NCBI GenBank assembly: GCA_937129145.1
Contig: CAKZMU010000009.1
Location: forward strand, 80,551 to 144,550
Reading direction: 5' to 3'
From: an uncultured Lacinutrix sp.
GTDB taxonomy: Bacteria; Bacteroidota; Bacteroidia; Flavobacteriales; Flavobacteriaceae
Length of the DNA stretch: 64,000 bases
The notes beneath the pieces were generated by a model that ran no database searches, was not told the origin of the DNA, and saw only the letters and a program-made list of their open reading frames with translations. Shown piece by piece: positions 2,648 to 31,450 of this stretch. Within the stretch, counting starts at the first letter, position 1, and each line of letters opens with the position of its first letter. A program made the translations under genes and the position numbers.

Positions 2648-3463
2648 ATGAAATACGTATTTGCATTTTTACTAACACTATCATTTTCTGTTGTTTTTGC
2701 ACAAGAAAAAGATAAAGCATTGCAAAAGTCCAACGATTTTGTCTATCAAGGTAATAGTTTGATTGAAGACGATTTTATTTCAGCAGAAAAAGAATACAGA
2801 AAAGCCATTTCAAAAAAACCGAGTAACGCTGTAGGTGCTTACAATTTAGGAAACGCCTATTACGAAACCAAAAACTTTGACGAAGCTTTATTGCGCCACA
2901 TAGAAGCTGCTAATGTTGCTAAAACCAAAGAAGAAAAGCACAGAGCATTTCACAATATTGGCAACACCTTAATGGAGCAAAAAAAGTGTAAAGAAGCGGT
3001 TGAGGCTTATAAAAACGCTTTAAGAAATAACCCAAGTGATGAAGAGTCCCGATACAATCTCGTAGTTGCTAAAGAATGTGCTGAACAACAGCAACAAAAC
3101 GAAGACGAGAACAAGGATAAGGACAAAAAAGACGAAGAGAAAGAAGACGAGAAGAAAGAGGATGAAGAAAAGAAGGACGATGGCGAAAAAGAAGATGAAA
3201 ACAAAGACGAAGGCGACCAAGATAAAAAAGATGGTGACCAAAAAGAAGATGAAGAAGGAAAGCCTAAAGACGATGAAAATCAGAAAAAAGATAGCGACCC
3301 TAAAAACCAGAAAGAAAAGCCACAACAGCAACCTGGAAAATTATCGCCTCAGCAAGTTAAAAACTTGTTAGAAGCCATGAATAATGAAGAGAAAAAGGTG
3401 CAACAAAAAATAAATGCTAAAAAAGCCAAAGGAAAGAAAGTAAAAGCCGAAAAAGATTGGTAA
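2648..3463 (+). CDS. batC: TPR protein BatC with an acidic/lysine-rich low-complexity tail
   Basis: The signal peptide starts at the internal ATG at 2648 (MKYVFAFLLTLSF). TPR-like repeats are followed by about 90 aa of K/E/D-rich sequence. The ORF-track start at 2579 is probably too early. Confidence 0.75.
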   Translation: MKYVFAFLLTLSFSVVFAQEKDKALQKSNDFVYQGNSLIEDDFISAEKEYRKAISKKPSNAVGAYNLGNAYYETKNFDEALLRHIEAANVAKTKEEKHRAFHNIGNTLMEQKKCKEAVEAYKNALRNNPSDEESRYNLVVAKECAEQQQQNEDENKDKDKKDEEKEDEKKEDEEKKDDGEKEDENKDEGDQDKKDGDQKEDEEGKPKDDENQKKDSDPKNQKEKPQQQPGKLSPQQVKNLLEAMNNEEKKVQQKINAKKAKGKKVKAEKDW

Positions 3464-3465
3464 AA

Positions 3466-5232
3466 ATGAAGTCTAAGCTCCTTATAATTACATTCTTAAT
3501 TACCTGTTTTGCTTCAGCACAAGTTACTTTTGAAGCGAAAGTCAGCAAGAAAAAATTAGGCATAAACGAGCGTTTACGCATTGATTTTGTGATGAATAAG
3601 GATGGCGATAACTTCACGCCACCTAGTTTTGAAAATTTTACTATTGTGGGTGGACCAAGTCAAACCATAAGCACACAATGGCTAAACGGCGTTAAAAAAT
3701 CTTCAAAAACGTTTAGCTACTTCTTAGCACCAAAAAAAAGAGGAAAATTCACTATTGGTCAATCTACTATAGAAATTGATGGTGAAATCTACAAAACAGT
3801 CCCTGTTACTATAGAGGTGACTGCTGCTATAGACAAACCAAAAGACCCTAACGACCCTAATTATATTGCTTCCCAAAGCATCCATTTGGTTGCCGAAGTC
3901 TCTAAAACCAATCCTTATTTAAACGAGGCTATTACAGTAGTTTACAAGCTCTATATTTCGCCAAATACAGGCGTTGAAACATGGCGAGAACTGGACAATC
4001 CTAGATATACCGATTTTTGGAGTCAGAATATAAATGTAAAAGAATTAAAGCTAATCCCAAGTAAATATAAAGGTGAAGATTATAGATATGTAGTATTAAG
4101 AAAAACTGTGTTATACCCTCAAAAAACAGGGAAGTTAAATATTGAACCTTTAACTTTAGATGTTAAAGTACAAGTGCCAACCAATAGACGTGATATTTTT
4201 GGAAGTAGGATGGTGAAAATGGTAAGTCGTACGGTTGCAGCAGGCAATAGAACAATTAATGTAAAGCCATTACCTGAAGCTGGGAAGCCATTGGGTTTTT
4301 CAGGAGCTGTTGGGGATTTTGACTTTGAGGTATCTACAAATAAAAGTAAGTTAAAAGCGACCGAGGCATTACAAGCTACAATAAAAGTATCTGGGAAAGG
4401 GAATTTAAAATTGTTTGAGCTTCCTAAATTAACATTGCCAAGTTCATTGGAAGTGTATGAACCAGAACACAGCGAAAAAGTATCCACAAACTTATCGGGA
4501 ATGCAAGGTCAAATAGCCGATAATTATACCATAGTACCTTCCTTTCAAGGAAAATACCCAATACCAAGTGTGTCGTTTTCATATTTTGACTTAAAAACGA
4601 AAAGGTATAAAACAATCACATCAGACGAAATTGTTATAAATGTCAACGAAGGTCCAATTAACAATAGTGCTGAACGCAACGACAATAATTCAAACCTTAC
4701 AAAGCAGCCTATTACGCAATCTGGAGGACAATTTCTATCGTTTAAAACAACAACAAAGTTCATTCCTAAAGAATCTTCGTATTTCTTTAAATCACGATTA
4801 TTTTGGATATTGTTGTTAGTGCCTTTTTTAATGATACCGCTGGCAATTTTCTTAAGACATAAAAAAGAAGAAAGAGACGGTGATGTTGTTGGAAACAAGA
4901 TTAGAGCAGCCAATAAATTAGCACGCAAATACTTGGGTGAGGCTAAAAAATCTTTAGGCAATAAAGAACAGTTTTATAACGCATTGGAACGTGCTTTACA
5001 TAATTATCTAAAAGCCAAACTGAATATTGAAACGAGTGACTTTAGTAAAGATAAAATTGAAGATTTATTAGCGAATAAATCTGTAAATAAAGATTCTATA
5101 GCAGAGTTTATTGATTTATTAAAAAGTTGCGAATTGGCTAGATATACGCCATTTACAAATGTAGAAATGCAACAGGATTATACTAAGGCATCACAAGTAA
5201 TATCTATTATTGACAAACAAATAAGACGATAA
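3466..5232 (+). CDS. batD: BatD oxygen-tolerance protein
   Basis: About 588 aa with a signal peptide, a late TM helix (LFWILLLVPFLMIPLAIFL) and a position after batC, which is the typical BatD architecture. ATG at 3466 is preferred over TTG at 3457. Confidence 0.8.
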   Translation: MKSKLLIITFLITCFASAQVTFEAKVSKKKLGINERLRIDFVMNKDGDNFTPPSFENFTIVGGPSQTISTQWLNGVKKSSKTFSYFLAPKKRGKFTIGQSTIEIDGEIYKTVPVTIEVTAAIDKPKDPNDPNYIASQSIHLVAEVSKTNPYLNEAITVVYKLYISPNTGVETWRELDNPRYTDFWSQNINVKELKLIPSKYKGEDYRYVVLRKTVLYPQKTGKLNIEPLTLDVKVQVPTNRRDIFGSRMVKMVSRTVAAGNRTINVKPLPEAGKPLGFSGAVGDFDFEVSTNKSKLKATEALQATIKVSGKGNLKLFELPKLTLPSSLEVYEPEHSEKVSTNLSGMQGQIADNYTIVPSFQGKYPIPSVSFSYFDLKTKRYKTITSDEIVINVNEGPINNSAERNDNNSNLTKQPITQSGGQFLSFKTTTKFIPKESSYFFKSRLFWILLLVPFLMIPLAIFLRHKKEERDGDVVGNKIRAANKLARKYLGEAKKSLGNKEQFYNALERALHNYLKAKLNIETSDFSKDKIEDLLANKSVNKDSIAEFIDLLKSCELARYTPFTNVEMQQDYTKASQVISIIDKQIRR

Positions 5233-5233
5233 T

Positions 5234-5995
5234 ATGAAGAAGATATTATACATACTAACAATTTTATTATGTACTTCTCTAGGTGCTCAAAATAACGTAT
5301 TGTTTGATGCTGGAAACAAAGCCTATAACGAAGGTGACTATCAAGAAGCTATTAATAGTTATGAAAGAATTTTAAACCAAGGCGTACATTCAAGCGAATT
5401 GTATTTTAACCTAGGCAATGCTTACTATAAACTTAATAGAATTGCACCAAGCATTTACTATTATGAAAAAGCCCTACAACTATCACCCAAAAACAAAGAC
5501 GTTAAAGCTAATTTGAGTTTTGCTAAAAACATGACCATAGACGCTATTGAAACTGTGCCAGAAATTGGGTTGTCGAGGATAAGTAAAAGCATTATAAACG
5601 CCTTTAGTTTTGATGCTTGGGCAATGTTTTCGGTAGGATTGGTTATGGTTTTTGCAATTCTGTTTTTAGGCTATTATTTTTCAAGCGCAACCTCTAAAAA
5701 GCGACTGGCTTTTATTGTGAGTTCATCGGCTATTATATTAGCTATTGTTTGTTTGTTTTTTGCCTATCAAAAATATAAATATGTACAAAAAGATAAACCA
5801 GCCATAGTTTTTGCTAAAGAAACCGATATTAAAACAGACCCAAATTTAAGAAGTGAAGTGGCCTTTACACTTCACGAAGGCACCAAAGTTCAGGTTTTGG
5901 AAACCTATGATGAAAATTGGACCAAAATAAAACTGGCAGATGGAAAAACAGGCTGGATTCCAACGGAAGATATTAAGCTGTTGAACAATATTTAA
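5234..5995 (+). CDS. batE: BatE: TPR plus C-terminal SH3-like domain protein
   Basis: Signal peptide, TPR repeats, two TM helices and a C-terminal SH3b-like segment (WTKIKLADGKTGWIPTEDI). It is the last gene of the bat cluster. Confidence 0.75.
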   Translation: MKKILYILTILLCTSLGAQNNVLFDAGNKAYNEGDYQEAINSYERILNQGVHSSELYFNLGNAYYKLNRIAPSIYYYEKALQLSPKNKDVKANLSFAKNMTIDAIETVPEIGLSRISKSIINAFSFDAWAMFSVGLVMVFAILFLGYYFSSATSKKRLAFIVSSSAIILAIVCLFFAYQKYKYVQKDKPAIVFAKETDIKTDPNLRSEVAFTLHEGTKVQVLETYDENWTKIKLADGKTGWIPTEDIKLLNNI

Positions 5996-6055
5996 TATTT
6001 CCTTAACAATTTTAACAAAATCAAAAAGTATATTTGCTTTTCAAAATTTTTTTGG

Positions 6056-6343
6056 ATGAACAAAAGTACTATTGCGCTTCTTTTTTCTATGTTATTTGTG
6101 GCCCTAATATCTGCGCCATCAATAATTAGTGCAGTAGATGATTCTGTTGATATATCCATACTGTACAGTATAACCGAAGAGGAAAATGAAAACATTAAAC
6201 TCACACTACCAGACAGTAAGCTCAAAGAAACAGATAATTTGTTTACAAATTCAAGTGACAAGCATTTAGTATATCGCAATAAAAAATATACTAAACCTCA
6301 CCTTAATTTAACCTTACCACCTCCAGAACAAAGTATTTTATAA
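6056..6343 (+). CDS. small hypothetical secreted/membrane protein
   Basis: 95-aa ORF with an N-terminal hydrophobic signal-like segment. No recognisable domain. Confidence 0.35.
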   Translation: MNKSTIALLFSMLFVALISAPSIISAVDDSVDISILYSITEEENENIKLTLPDSKLKETDNLFTNSSDKHLVYRNKKYTKPHLNLTLPPPEQSIL

Positions 6344-29497: not shown

Positions 29498-29529
29498 AAA
29501 AATCGGCAATCTTGTCTTGCCGATTTAAT

Positions 29530-29613
29530 GGGAACTCGTCAACGTTGGAGAGTTGGTGCAGATTGTAAACCTGTTGCTTAAATGCTAAGAAAGTTCGAAT
29601 CTTTCAGTTCCCA
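29530..29613 (+). tRNA. tRNA-Tyr-like (anticodon GTA), class II, slightly non-canonical
   Basis: Acceptor GGGAACT/AGTTCCC, anticodon loop TTGTAAA, variable arm CTTA-AATGC-TAAG, and T arm GAAAG-TTCGAAT-CTTTC. Anomalies are C at position 8 and an A.C pair closing the anticodon stem. Confidence 0.7.
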
Positions 29614-29627
29614 CAAATAAATAGATT

Positions 29628-29700
29628 GACAAGGTGGCTGAACGGTTAAGGCAACAGACTGCAAATCTGTTTTTTGTGAGTTCAAATCTCACCCTTGTCT
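29628..29700 (+). tRNA. tRNA-Cys (anticodon GCA)
   Basis: Acceptor GACAAGG/CCTTGTC, anticodon arm ACAGA-CTGCAAA-TCTGT, T arm GTGAG-TTCAAAT-CTCAC, and discriminator U as expected for Cys. Confidence 0.85.
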
Positions 29701-29706
29701 CAAAAT

Positions 29707-29779
29707 AGTATCGTAGCTCAATGGCTAGAGCGCTCGGTTGTCTCCCGAGAAGTTGCGGGTTCGAATCTCGTCGGTACTG
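29707..29779 (+). tRNA. tRNA-Asp (anticodon GTC)
   Basis: Acceptor AGTATCG/CGGTACT, D arm GCTC/GAGC, anticodon arm CTCGG-TTGTCTC-CCGAG, T arm GCGGG-TTCGAAT-CTCGT, and discriminator G. Confidence 0.85.
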
Positions 29780-29780
29780 C

Positions 29781-29844
29781 GAAGCAGTTTAAGAGATGAG
29801 AAGTTTACCCTGAGCGTAGTCGAAGGGAATCTTGTCGGTACTGC
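29781..29844 (+). repeat. conserved 46-nt tRNA-trailer element (copy A) plus an 18-nt duplicate of the tRNA-Asp 3' end
   Basis: 29781-29826 is GAAGCAGTTTAAGAGATGAGAAGTTTACCCTGAGCGTAGTCGAAGG. 29827-29844 (GAATCTTGTCGGTACTGC) repeats 29763-29780 with 1 mismatch. The core matches copy B at 30181-30226. Confidence 0.8.
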
Positions 29845-29848
29845 AAAT

Positions 29849-29931
29849 CTGGGAGGATAATCCCGAAGGTTCGGGAGTGGTTTACTCGCTTTGGAAGCGA
29901 GAGGTTGTAGGTTCAAATCCTACCTCTCAGA
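29849..29931 (+). tRNA. tRNA-Pro-like (anticodon TGG) with a hairpin insertion in the D-loop
   Basis: Acceptor CTGGGAG/CTCTCAG (C1:G72 and A73, as in bacterial tRNA-Pro), anticodon arm CTCGC-TTTGGAA-GCGAG, and T arm GTAGG-TTCAAAT-CCTAC. The D region is about 10 nt too long because of the hairpin TCCCGAAGGTTCGGGA (29861-29876). Confidence 0.6.
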
Positions 29932-29937
29932 CAAAAT

Positions 29938-30009
29938 ACTCCGTTAGTCAAATGGCTAAGACGCCTGACTTTCTATCAGGAATTAAGGGTTCAATTCCCT
30001 TACGGAGTA
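29938..30009 (+). tRNA. tRNA-Glu (anticodon TTC)
   Basis: Acceptor ACTCCGT/ACGGAGT, anticodon arm CCTGA-CTTTCTA-TCAGG, and T arm AAGGG-TTCAATT-CCCTT. Confidence 0.8.
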
Positions 30010-30014
30010 CACAT

Positions 30015-30100
30015 TGAGATATAGCTTAATTGGTAGAGCGTCGCTCTCATAAGGCGAATGGTTTAGGTTCTCCCGATAGTTATCGGGACTAATATCTCAA
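30015..30100 (+). tRNA. tRNA-Met/Ile2-like (anticodon CAT) with a hairpin insertion in the T-loop
   Basis: Acceptor TGAGATA/TATCTCA, D arm GCTT/GAGC, and anticodon arm TCGCT-CTCATAA-GGCGA. The T-stem is TTAG(G)/(A)CTAA, but the T-loop is TTC followed by the 18-nt hairpin TCCCGATAGTTATCGGGA (30071-30088). Confidence 0.55.
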
Positions 30101-30106
30101 CAACAC

Positions 30107-30179
30107 GCAGGAATGGCGAAACGGCAAACGCACTCGACTTAGAATCGAGAAACTGGGAGTTCGAATCTCTCTTCCTGTA
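30107..30179 (+). tRNA. tRNA-Leu-like (anticodon TAG) with a short (5-nt) variable loop
   Basis: Acceptor GCAGGAA/TTCCTGT, a class-II-like D arm (TGGCGAAACGGCAAACGC), anticodon arm CTCGA-CTTAGAA-TCGAG, variable region of only AAACT, and T arm GGGAG-TTCGAAT-CTCTC. Confidence 0.65.
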
Positions 30180-30180
30180 C

Positions 30181-30246
30181 GAAGTAAGGAAAGAGATGAG
30201 AAGTTTATGCTGAGCGAAGTCGAAGTGAATCTCTCTTCCTGTACGA
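30181..30246 (+). repeat. conserved 46-nt tRNA-trailer element (copy B) plus a 20-nt duplicate of the tRNA-Leu(TAG) 3' end
   Basis: 30181-30226 is GAAGTAAGGAAAGAGATGAGAAGTTTATGCTGAGCGAAGTCGAAGT. 30227-30246 (GAATCTCTCTTCCTGTACGA) exactly repeats 30163-30182. Confidence 0.8.
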
Positions 30247-30247
30247 T

Positions 30248-30321
30248 GCTCCACTAGCCCAAATGGAAGAGGCAACAGTTTTAAGCGCTGTTAAGTCCAA
30301 GTTCGAATCTTGGGTGGAGTA
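30248..30321 (+). tRNA. tRNA-Leu-like (anticodon TAA) with a short variable loop
   Basis: Acceptor GCTCCAC/GTGGAGT (G1:U72), anticodon arm ACAGT-TTTAAGC-GCTGT (alternatively AACAG/CTGTT with a 9-nt loop), variable TAAGT, and T arm CCAAG-TTCGAAT-CTTGG. Confidence 0.6.
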
Positions 30322-30327
30322 CAAAAT

Positions 30328-30451
30328 AAGCTTATGGTGTAATGGAAAGCACACAAGGTTTAGCTCATGCATATCTATTTCAAGAAATAGGTATTCGTGA
30401 ATGCAAAGCATTTCGAACCTTGGAGTATGGGTTCAAGTCCTATTAAGCTTA
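30328..30451 (+). tRNA. tRNA-like gene (probably Arg, anticodon TCG) with a 52-nt insertion in the anticodon loop
   Basis: Acceptor AAGCTTA/TAAGCTT, D arm GTGT/GCAC, anticodon stem CAAGG (30354-58) / CCTTG (30418-22) enclosing 59 nt, and T arm ATGGG-TTCAAGT-CCTAT. The last 7 loop nt, TTTCGAA, form a canonical loop. The insert at 30359-30410 contains the hairpin CTATTTC-AAG-GAAATAG. Confidence 0.55.
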
Positions 30452-30456
30452 CAAAA

Positions 30457-30527
30457 TAACCTGTGGTGTAACGGTAACACTCAAGATTTTGATTCTTGTA
30501 TTATAGGTTCGAATCCTATCAGGTTAT
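30457..30527 (+). tRNA. tRNA-Gln (anticodon TTG)
   Basis: Acceptor TAACCTG/CAGGTTA, D arm GTGT/ACAC, anticodon arm CAAGA-TTTTGAT-TCTTG, and T arm ATAGG-TTCGAAT-CCTAT. Confidence 0.8.
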
Positions 30528-30535
30528 CAAAAAAT

Positions 30536-30608
30536 GGAACAGTAGCAAAGTTGGTCAATGCGTCGGACTGAAAATCTGAAAATACAGGTTCAATTCCTGT
30601 CTGTTCCA
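30536..30608 (+). tRNA. tRNA-Phe (anticodon GAA)
   Basis: Acceptor GGAACAG/CTGTTCC, anticodon arm TCGGA-CTGAAAA-TCTGA, and T arm ACAGG-TTCAATT-CCTGT. Confidence 0.82.
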
Positions 30609-30768
30609 CTAAAATTAAAGATTCCTGCCTATGCAGGAAATAATATCAAGCTGGTCTTGTTGAGTGTTTCGGTATAGCACTATTGTATAAATCGTTGCAG
30701 AAATGCATCATGAGTTTATGTTCAACTAGACTTGAAGGTTTTGACTGTTAACCAAAAAATGGTCTCCC

Positions 30769-30803
30769 CCTATAGGTCGTGGGTTCGACTCCCACTTATC
30801 CCA
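30769..30803 (+). pseudogene. orphan tRNA 3' half (anticodon-stem 3' strand, variable loop, T arm, acceptor 3' strand)
   Basis: CCTAT-AGGTC-GTGGG-TTCGACT-CCCAC-TTATCCC-A. No matching 5' half lies upstream. The complementary 5' half lies 3 nt downstream. Confidence 0.6.
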
Positions 30804-30806
30804 ATT

Positions 30807-30873
30807 GGGATAGTAGTTCAGTGGTTAGAACAATAGGATGTAGGTGTTGCTGGTTCGATTCCAGTCGTTTGCT
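30807..30873 (+). pseudogene. tRNA 5' half (acceptor 5' strand, D arm, anticodon-stem 5' strand) fused to an unrelated T arm and acceptor 3' strand
   Basis: GGGATAG-TA-GTTC-AGTGGTTA-GAAC-A-ATAGG is followed by ATGTAGGTGTT, then GCTGG-TTCGATT-CCAGT-CGTTTGC. The acceptor strands within this unit do not pair. GGGATAG and ATAGG pair perfectly with the upstream fragment at 30769-30803. Confidence 0.55.
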
Positions 30874-30888
30874 TGGAGAAATTCCTTG

Positions 30889-30950
30889 GCAATAGTAGCT
30901 CAATTGGTAGAGCACTGCACTTTTAATGCAGGTTTGGACTCAAAATCCAC
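30889..30950 (+). pseudogene. tRNA-Lys-like (anticodon TTT) fragment lacking a matching acceptor 3' strand
   Basis: GCAATAG-TA-GCTC-AATTGGTA-GAGC-A-CTGCA-CTTTTAA-TGCAG is followed by a degenerate T arm (TGGA-CTCAAAA-TCCA). No CTATTGC-like 3' strand lies downstream. Confidence 0.5.
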
Positions 30951-31450
30951 AATCAAAAGCCCATCATCTTTTAAAACTGATGACCAACGCAGATTGTCAT
31001 TCTGCTCAACAAAAATGACAAAAATAGTAGATTGCAAGTCGGCTTTAGATTCCTGCATTACTGACGCATCGGTCAACACTGGTCGTGGGAATGACAAAAC
31101 TAGAGCAGTCTTGAAAGTGCCTTGAAATACTGATTTTTAATAGTAGAAGTGGTTACTGTTTTGTAATAAGAAATTATATAAATCTGATTATCGATTCATA
31201 TAGTTGTCACAATACTCAGCACTAATTACAGGCACTATTAATATGAGTATTTCCGCACCAGAAAAATGATTTGCTTTCTGCTATTTTTAACAATGAAGAG
31301 ATATAAAAATATACTTCAATTAATGATGAACTCGTCATTGTTTTTTGAAGTTGGTAAGCCTTCCGTTACAAGAATTGCCGCCACGCTCAAAAATGGGCAA
31401 CAATAAATGTTTAATCTTCCTGAAATAAATTCAGGATAAAAAAATTAGAA

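Follow-up and report, generated by a model that had tools for sequence, protein, structure and literature searches.

Two copies of a 64-nucleotide tRNA-linked element in a Flavobacteriaceae tRNA array share their plan with the tyrT tRNA-linked repeats of E. coli

We analyzed a 64,000-nucleotide (nt) stretch of DNA from an uncultured Lacinutrix sp. (assembly GCA_937129145.1, contig CAKZMU010000009.1; hereafter the window), in which two tRNA genes of one array are each followed by a 64-nt unit that ends in a second copy of the tRNA 3′ end. Both units begin 1 nt past C74 of a same-strand tRNA and have the same order of parts: a GAA linker, a 14-nt arm (X′) complementary to the tRNA 3′ end, GAGAAG, UUUA, a 20-nt hairpin of the form NNC-UGAGCGNAGUCGAA-GNN, and X2, a copy of tRNA positions A58–C74, the original of which we call X1 (X for either). 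An earlier, sequence-only reading of the same DNA did not recognize the element as a known motif. This was not quite right, since the E. coli tRNA-linked repeats (TLRs; PMC8144298) have the same architecture, and on this analogy the element belongs with the TLRs as a minimal, phylogenetically widespread variant. Our overall explanation, to which we give about an even chance, is that both copies are minimal TLRs that would be co-transcribed with their tRNAs, trimmed like a tRNA end, and carried as selfish or neutral passengers on a mobile hairpin module. The features of the two copies are as follows.

29707–29779, + strand: tRNA-Asp(GTC), host gene of copy A (ARAGORN; Rfam tRNA model, 58.3 bits; C74 is position 29780).
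29764–29780, + strand: X1 of copy A, the original of the duplicate, tRNA A58–C74, AATCTCGTCGGTACTGC (sequence; direct-repeat search).
29781–29783, + strand: GAA linker of copy A (sequence; forms the loop of an alternative X1:X′ hairpin in the fold with X1 included).
29784–29797, + strand: X′ arm of copy A, GCAGTTTAAGAGAT, in which GCAGT pairs with N70–74 and GAGAT with N59–63 of X (sequence, covariation, duplex energies).
29798–29807, + strand: junction GAGAAG plus UUUA of copy A (GAGAAG is also found in the E. coli tyrT TLR units).
29808–29827, + strand: conserved hairpin CCC-UGAGCGUAGUCGAA-GGG of copy A (stem covariation; 100% paired in a 76-element alignment; at least 15 phyla).
29828–29844, + strand: X2 of copy A, duplicate of A58–C74 with C63 changed to U (sequence; repeat search).
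30107–30179, + strand: tRNA-Leu(TAG), 73 nt, without a long variable arm, host gene of copy B (ARAGORN; Rfam tRNA model).
30181–30244, + strand: copy B, whole 64-nt unit (sequence, core pattern, repeat search; missing at the orthologous sites of two sister genera, L135 and L136), with GAA at 30181–30183, X′ (GTAAGGAAAGAGAT) at 30184–30197, GAGAAG at 30198–30203, TTTA at 30204–30207, the hairpin at 30208–30227 and X2 at 30228–30244.

The 46-nt insert and the duplicated tRNA end are real and non-random. As the sequence-only reading had pointed out, the last 18 nt of tRNA-Asp (GAATCTCGTCGGTACTGC, 29763–29780) recur beyond the insert (29781–29826) with one mismatch (GAATCTTGTCGGTACTGC, 29827–29844; 17 of 18 positions identical), and the same C-to-T change is present in a related metagenome copy (L178). 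For copy B, X1 (30163–30180) and X2 (30227–30244) are identical at 18 of 18 positions, and the whole layout repeats that of copy A at an offset of exactly 400 nt downstream. A repeat search returned three families, namely a shared 53-nt element (29780–29832 and 30180–30232, 83% identity) and both of the 64-nt-spaced tRNA-end duplicates. The core pattern GAGAAGTTTANNCTGAGCGNAGTCGAAG occurred exactly twice in the window, compared to 0.00 occurrences expected from shuffles, which bears out the claim that a conserved core is shared with a second element behind an unrelated tRNA. The complementarity of the 5′ part of the insert to the duplicated tRNA end was likewise found: in copy A, GCAGT pairs with ACTGC and GAGAT with ATCTC (with one G·U pair against the ATCTT of X2), and in copy B the arm pairs over 14 nt with two bulges. 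What had been described as a purine-rich loop of about 30 nt, however, is not a loop, but GAGAAG-UUUA followed by a separate 20-nt hairpin, the stem of which changes in concert between copy A (CCC/GGG) and copy B (UGC/GUG).

TLRs were described in E. coli by Egan and Landy in 1978 and by Rudd in 1999 (both summarized in PMC8144298). The 22 known units are distributed over ten loci, with one to five per locus, often in tandem; each immediately follows a tRNA or rRNA gene of its own operon and orientation, and its last 18–19 bp repeat the 3′ end of the upstream gene (PMC8144298). As a class, they are described as read-through transcripts from which processing yields a discrete RNA ending at the repeated 3′ end (RttR, RrB). 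They have no known function except for the rrn-linked RrA, RrB and RrF, which bind Hfq and CsrA in vitro (PMC8144298). Inspecting the E. coli tyrT–tyrV locus, we found that each 178-nt unit consists of a trailer, GGGGAAGGAT, GAGAAG, a core of ∼95 nt and AATCCTTCCCCCACCACCA, where GGGGAAGGAT is the complement of ATCCTTCCCC (N59–68) and AATCCTTCCCCCACCACCA corresponds to A58–A76 of tyrT. The 3′ end of the annotated small RNA (sRNA) RttR falls exactly on the last A of this duplicate, and the unit is predicted to fold with the same X′:X2 closing helix. TLRs and the window element both lie on the same strand directly downstream of a tRNA, end in a copy of its 3′ end from A58 onward, and come as one to several tandem units; the terminal identity of 18–19 bp in TLRs compares with 17/18 in copy A and 18/18 in copy B. 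With the tyrT TLR, moreover, the element has a common plan, X′ (complement of N59 onward)-GAGAAG-core-A58 duplicate, in which arm and duplicate form a closing helix. The two differ in their cores, ∼95 nt and multi-helix in tyrT as opposed to a 24-nt UUUA-hairpin in the window, which cannot be aligned by eye, and in the length of the duplicate, which is 19 nt in tyrT since CCA is encoded but ends at C74 in the window. To our knowledge, other E. coli TLRs (rrnB type) do not have the X′-GAGAAG signature, and TLRs have so far been described only in enterobacteria. We detected the minimal form in Flavobacteriaceae, cyanobacterial and gammaproteobacterial genomes as well as in many metagenome contigs.

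More than 100 further copies were found, and they show that the element recurs, is structured and is tied to the 3′ ends of tRNAs, as had been suspected from the window alone. We assembled 155 elements from a metagenome scan requiring GAGAAG ahead of the core, among the matches listed, plus other fetched loci. A same-strand tRNA was present at most 400 nt upstream of 121 of them and an opposite-strand tRNA upstream of none; most of the remaining elements without an upstream tRNA were at contig ends. The GAGAAG form of the hairpin is therefore tRNA-linked, and it occurs behind 24 anticodon classes. Of 108 unique elements, 92 have a duplicate starting at the offset from the ARAGORN end equivalent to A58; in 11 more it starts at −18/−19, mostly behind tRNAs whose encoded 3′ end is longer (for instance with CCA), so that it begins at A58 in about 95% of copies. 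Its end is usually within a few nt of C74, and the duplication is 17–19 nt long, as set by tRNA landmarks. We rejected C74 as a special mark, since nearly all distinct tRNA genes in the fetched loci encode it (279 of 280; full CCA in only 28), and we likewise discarded the idea that a reverse transcriptase stopping at m1A58 had set the boundary, since A58 itself is duplicated.

With respect to spacing, the elements fall into a short class, with X′ directly behind the tRNA as in the window, and a long class (the majority), with X′ 50–75 nt downstream, past a lineage-specific trailer that frequently takes the form of a terminator-like hairpin. Tandem arrays of 2 to at least 8 units were common (L019, L054, L154, L165 and L167; at least 8 units in L250); L054 is from Gelidibacter gilvus IC158. 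Close metagenome relatives of copy A (L154, L178) and copy B (L140, L161) include tandem pairs (L154, L140 and L161); the window itself has single units at two tRNAs. Two of the explanations that the sequence-only reading had put forward do not fit this distribution. Cassette-type recombination scars are at odds with one core behind 24 anticodon classes and with the lack of a recombinase domain among the ten neighboring open reading frames (ORFs) scanned (see below), and a primer-binding-site-like sequence with an arm that pairs only with N59–65 in most copies and with a duplicate without CCA.

The X′ arm follows the tRNA behind which it lies. In RNAduplex predictions, X′ bound its own X2 with a mean of −10.1 kcal/mol, compared to −6.6 kcal/mol with the X2 of other tRNA types (p = 4e-16). 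We further tested covariation on an ungapped alignment of 76 distinct elements, with 500 shuffles and with register slides as a control. The two-helix structure was 89.7% paired versus 76.3% in shuffles, none of which reached the observed value. The X′:X2 helix was paired at 82% (register slides, at most 59%), six of the seven X′:N59–65 pairs covaried, and we counted 182 double-sided changes versus 68 ± 6 in shuffles (0/500 reached the observed number). By duplex energies and by alignment alike, the arm covaries with whichever tRNA precedes it. Two findings that the sequence-only reading had named as refutations, a lack of copies elsewhere and a lack of complementarity to their own tRNA, are therefore not borne out. 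Pairing with N66–74 exceeded the control only in the short class. The acceptor/T-stem minihelix proposed by the sequence-only reading hence holds for that class, including the window and E. coli, but not as a general rule, since the long class pairs the T-stem part only. We also asked whether X′ is a copy of the tRNA's own 5′ strands and rejected this: X′ of copy B has A facing U72 and U64, where the tRNA has G·U, and X′ is therefore the Watson–Crick complement of X.

The hairpin between GAGAAG and X2 has a much wider distribution than the tRNA-linked form. By inspection of the sequence, it is predicted to fold into four Watson–Crick pairs, C-G and U-A among them, tandem G·A/A·G, one G-C pair and a hexaloop CGNAGU. 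The pattern TTTANNCTGAGCGNAGTCGAA was present in 12 viral contigs and at least 120 genome contigs. The hairpin is present in at least 15 phyla with a nearly invariant loop, its carriers including Bacteroidota, Patescibacteria, Cyanobacteria, Acidobacteriota, Chloroflexota, Planctomycetota, Verrucomicrobiota, Omnitrophota, Nitrospira and several proteobacterial classes. Covariation of the two variable stem pairs among 141 unique copies (56 G·U versus 2 A·C combinations) shows that the hairpin forms on this strand, as RNA or single-stranded DNA. Most copies have 'AG' right before UUUA. Some lie far from any tRNA, and the generic TTTA-hairpin unit of ∼24 nt turned up within tandem repeats of heptamers, in loops belonging to other hairpins, and nested inside inverted self-copies. 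In a literature search for the literal sequence, the core strings had no match, and a resemblance of GAGUUUAUCCUGAG to the 5′ end of 16S rRNA was judged coincidental. Separately, in two unrelated phages (viral contigs L005, 5111–5131, and L010, 7182–7202) we observed an intergenic hairpin with G as loop base N and a GGAG 8 nt ahead of the next ATG, and there the hairpin may serve as a ribosome-binding site.

The window is a piece of Flavobacteriaceae chromosome and not a phage. The element sits in an array of ∼13 tRNA genes, several of them aberrant, between a TPR gene and an SPFH gene, and nine of the ten neighboring ORFs that we scanned against Pfam (24.2–36.4 kb) have housekeeping-type domains (RecJ, MFS transporter, OsmC, CMD, TPR, SPFH, M28 peptidase, UDG and methylase; the tenth had no Pfam match). 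No integrase, recombinase or transposase domain was found among these ten ORFs. Among named homologues, those nearest to the TPR protein (83% identity) come from three genera of Flavobacteriaceae, Hyunsoonleella, Seonamhaeicola and Winogradskyella. A phage origin was accordingly rejected, as nucleotide similarity to cultured phages was limited to the tRNAs and the neighboring genes are chromosomal; the exact element pattern had no match in 2.9 million viral contigs. In Hyunsoonleella flava (L135) and Seonamhaeicola maritimus (L136), the orthologous arrays have the same two flanking genes as the window, and in both of them tRNA-Leu(TAG) ends in ...CCTGTAC, tRNA-Leu(TAA) starts 4 nt further on, and the unit is not there. 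Because these junctions are empty in two sister genera, the 64 nt of copy B, X′ and X2 included, are an insertion or duplication specific to the lineage of the window. The same empty sites lack X′-GAGAAG, which we therefore do not regard as native trailer sequence. Together with the tandem arrays, they fit the suggestion of the sequence-only reading that this is a miniature tRNA-targeting insertion with target duplication.

A gain of this kind calls to mind a scar of site-specific integration, left by a tyrosine-integrase element that had entered the T-loop, duplicated the 3′ end (attL/attR) and then lost almost all of its interior. The A58-to-end boundary resembles the att cores that Williams reportedly described in 2002. 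Integrative elements classically leave a partial tRNA copy from the T-loop region to the 3′ end, likewise as direct repeats, but these flank kilobases with an integrase (PMC9897764), whereas the repeats here flank just 46 nt with a conserved hairpin. One conserved core is found behind 24 anticodon classes and in many phyla, the scanned ORFs have no integrase domain, the orthologous arrays keep their flanking genes, arrays reach up to 8 units (at least 8 in L250), and the X′ arm is left unaccounted for. This explanation is already largely refuted, and we consider it extremely unlikely.

Returning to the minimal-TLR explanation, we propose the following course of events. The unit would be transcribed together with the tRNA array, and X′ would pair with the duplicate X2, so that the transcript ends in a tRNA-like terminus, in the window a helix of 10–14 bp resembling the acceptor/T-stem. 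The tRNA 3′-end machinery would treat the unit as a tRNA, trim it and so release an RNA of ∼64 nt, as E. coli does for RttR; transcription and processing are assumed here from that precedent, with which the processing trailer considered by the sequence-only reading would also be consistent. Recombination between the duplicated tRNA ends (X repeats) would expand the arrays, which would explain the tandem units. We consider the element most likely a passenger.

Several observations weigh against this explanation. Beyond X′-GAGAAG and the A58 boundary, the cores of the window element and the tyrT TLR are unalignable, so that the shared plan may reflect either homology or convergence. In the long class, only N59–65 (the T-stem part) are paired, which makes a 'tRNA-like terminus' weak there. 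Although the isolated units are predicted to fold into the expected hairpin (−15.4 and −14.0 kcal/mol), they are not unusually stable (z = −1.3 and −1.1), and once X1 is included in the fold, a competing X1:X′ hairpin closed by C-GAA-G is predicted. Mismatches in X′:X2 are A·C about as frequently as G·U, unlike in the hairpin stem. Because of this, the X′:X2 complementarity suggests an origin by copying followed by decay, rather than maintenance by selection at the RNA level. Generic hairpin copies, moreover, have no orientation bias relative to neighboring genes (23 sense, 22 antisense, based on crude ORF calls), which favors a DNA-level life of the hairpin module. Finally, the model leaves unexplained how X′ and X are re-specified together behind each new tRNA; snap-back, P-nucleotide-like, Campbell-circle and rolling-circle schemes were considered for their joint origin, and none accounts for all forms seen.

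The competing X1:X′ hairpin could also be read as one state of a cis-regulatory switch, in which the genuine tRNA 3′ end and the decoy X2 compete for X′. Pairing with the former would block folding or maturation and pairing with the latter would allow it, which would tune the tRNA output of the array. The minimum-free-energy fold of the whole precursor, in which the acceptor 5′ strand pairs with X2, points in the same direction, but such folds do not take the tertiary structure of tRNA into account. Members of the long class, which is the majority, have an X′ of 5–7 nt that lies 50–70 nt away from X1, so the geometry is not conserved and fits the short class only, and no ligand or protein sensor is evident. 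We therefore put very little weight on a switch.

The strongest rival is a miniature mobile element at the DNA level, similar to repetitive extragenic palindromic (REP) sequences, small dispersed repeats (SDRs) or miniature inverted-repeat transposable elements (MITEs). Here, a single-stranded-DNA hairpin would be inserted beside tRNAs by an enzyme encoded by the host or by an element (for example an HUH/Y1 transposase or a recombinase), and X′ and X2 would be by-products of the insertion chemistry, with no role for the RNA. The varied contexts of the ∼24-nt TTTA-hairpin (heptamer repeats, loops of other hairpins, inverted self-copies), the lack of orientation bias, the filled site in the window opposite empty ones in sister genera, and the existence of tandem arrays all speak for it, and the A·C mismatches in X′:X2 fit a templated origin with neutral decay. 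Set against this are the lack of a transposase or recombinase domain among the scanned ORFs, a near-identical loop in at least 15 phyla, unlike lineage-specific REPs, and a duplication whose 17–19 nt are delimited by landmarks of the tRNA, from A58 to the end of the gene, with no fixed stagger. No known transposition chemistry copies the target in inverted as well as in direct orientation, and the window copies have no terminal inverted repeats. On balance, we consider a purely DNA-level element possible but rather unlikely.

According to Elhai et al. in 2008, SDR1–8 of Nostoc are reportedly hairpin units of 21–27 nt that behave like mobile elements, are nested, occur in tandem heptamer repeats or HIP1 and insert precisely at short sites. 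We know of no SDR for which a tRNA-end duplication or a complementary arm has been described. Compared by description only, the generic TTTA-hairpin unit occurs in the same contexts (heptamer repeats, nesting). SDRs, however, have been reported only in Nostocaceae (PMC4390886, PMC5861425), whereas the hairpin studied here is found in at least 15 phyla. REPs resemble the element in being short, strand-specific hairpins with G·T wobbles that are intergenic and multi-copy (PMC3116915). In contrast to the element, REPs and REPINs are genome-specific in sequence, form inverted doublets and are linked to RAYTs (PMC3116915); we saw none of these features, though no search aimed at RAYT genes was made, and the constancy of the hairpin sequence across phyla argues against membership in this group. 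MITEs have terminal inverted repeats and a fixed-length target duplication. The window units have neither (no terminal inverted repeats were found in the sequence or by repeat search), although some proteobacterial-type units start with an inverted hairpin-like motif. This motif, ACTTCGACAAGCTCAGTG, was observed right after the tRNA end in a gammaproteobacterial metagenome-assembled genome (L047) and in unclassified metagenome contigs (L169, L180, L158, L146, L164, L183 and L186), the units of which thereby have terminal inverted repeats. A different arrangement was present in L104 (Olleya aquimaris DSM 24464, 5743–6100) and L187, where the second copy of the duplicated block includes the trailer, X′ and GAGAAG, with neither the hairpin nor a third X after it; no simple insertion model accounts for this.

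We also considered that the element might be a small self-cleaving ribozyme that matures the 3′ end of CCA-less tRNAs. Precedents are the theta ribozymes, which are hepatitis delta virus (HDV)-like, ∼55 nt long and located immediately 3′ of CCA-less phage tRNAs, mostly in Bacteroidota-associated genomes (PMC10879173). The window element likewise lies directly 3′ of tRNAs without encoded CCA in Bacteroidota, and its 14-nt loop is near-invariant across phyla, as ribozyme cores are. Theta ribozymes differ from it in fold and sequence, are phage-borne and have no tRNA-end duplicate. The HDV-like fold is a nested double pseudoknot with a 7-bp P1 starting from the cleavage site, a CC/GG P1.1, a P3 of 3 bp and, ahead of P2′, a catalytic C in J4/2 (PMC10879173), and its segments follow the order P1|J|P2|P3|U|CC|..|P3′|P1′|GG|P4|C..|P2′ (PMC10879173 data table). 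Fitted by hand to both copies, this layout fails, with no P1/P1′ pair past the tRNA end and no GG/CC P1.1. Our core strings were not found in the theta supplementary tables (PMC10879173), and the HDV families of Rfam gave no match at E ≤ 10. A search of window positions 29500–30700 against Rfam 15 (E ≤ 10) returned only tRNA and chance-level matches, and eleven other hairpin-bearing loci had no Rfam match. By eye, none of the consensus sequences of hammerhead, pistol, hairpin ribozyme, K-turn or T-loop fits the core; the tandem G·A lies between Watson–Crick pairs, with no 3-nt bulge and no CUGANGA. In most copies, in addition, 50–75 nt, frequently with a terminator-like hairpin, separate the element from the tRNA, and the conserved hairpin also occurs far from tRNAs. 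There is no positive support for a ribozyme, and we deem one highly improbable.

If the minimal-TLR explanation is taken further, TLRs might form a class of tiny structured elements found throughout the bacteria, each of which would program itself to a tRNA on arrival, by copying it from A58 to the end and acquiring a matching arm. We regard this extension as improbable. It would imply templated, base-pair-guided insertion by a 24-nt hairpin module without a gene of its own, the smallest guide-bearing mobile element known, which might move via an RNA cut out by tRNA-processing enzymes. E. coli TLRs have been unexplained since 1978 and treated as an enterobacterial oddity. With the same plan now present in a 64-nt minimal form, there is a small, comparable and mutable object for asking how a tRNA end and its complement get copied, and whether the RNA acts. 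On a practical note, duplicated 3′ ends and odd trailers of this kind can mislead both tRNA annotation and the prediction of att sites of genomic islands.

Apart from the two units, the array at 29530–30960 is unusual in itself, with ∼13 tRNA or tRNA-like genes separated by spacers of 4–10 nt. Both tRNA-Leu(TAG) and tRNA-Leu(TAA) are without a long variable arm, and a tRNA-Tyr-like gene at ∼29530–29614 was not called by ARAGORN in the window, but was called in the sister arrays. Gene content differs between the orthologous arrays of L135 and L136. In L136, a variant unit lies behind tRNA-Pro(TGG) at ∼4945–5045 (X1, aatcctgcttctcagac; X2, aatcccgcttctcagac); its insert of ∼65 nt has a GAAG start and CTGAG..CGAAG inside, but a different interior. 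Another conserved insert of ∼85 nt (aaaagtactctgtgaacaacgcgaatggtgctgggttctataagagaag...), unrelated to the element studied here, follows tRNA-Asp in sister taxa, namely in L135 (∼4735–4820) and in a further locus, L137 (∼3040–3125).

Hairpins of the type TCCCGA..TCGGGA were observed within tRNA-like genes of the window (29848–29935 and 30013–30095) and of L137 (3300–3395). One of those in the window is in the D region of a tRNA-Pro(UGG)-like gene (tcccgaaggttcggga) and one in the T-loop of a CAT-anticodon tRNA (tcccgatagttatcggga), while a tRNA-Phe-like gene of L137 has similar TCCCG..CGGGA stems at the positions of the D- and anticodon-arms. These hairpins may represent a second family of mini-inserts. 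The anticodon loop of the tRNA-Arg-like gene at 30326–30445 carries an insert of ∼52 nt that the L136 ortholog (tRNA-Arg ACG) does not have; a group I intron would be longer. A non-coding stretch of ∼190 nt is common to three genera (window 30610–30800, L135 ∼5790–6000, L136 ∼6010–6210) and ends in a tRNA-like T-arm/acceptor (..ggtcgtgggttcgactcccac); its sole Rfam match was a chance-level one to permuted tmRNA. Lastly, in the relative represented by L137, HIRAN and RtcB (RNA ligase) genes (3418–5215) take the place of the SPFH gene behind the tRNA array.

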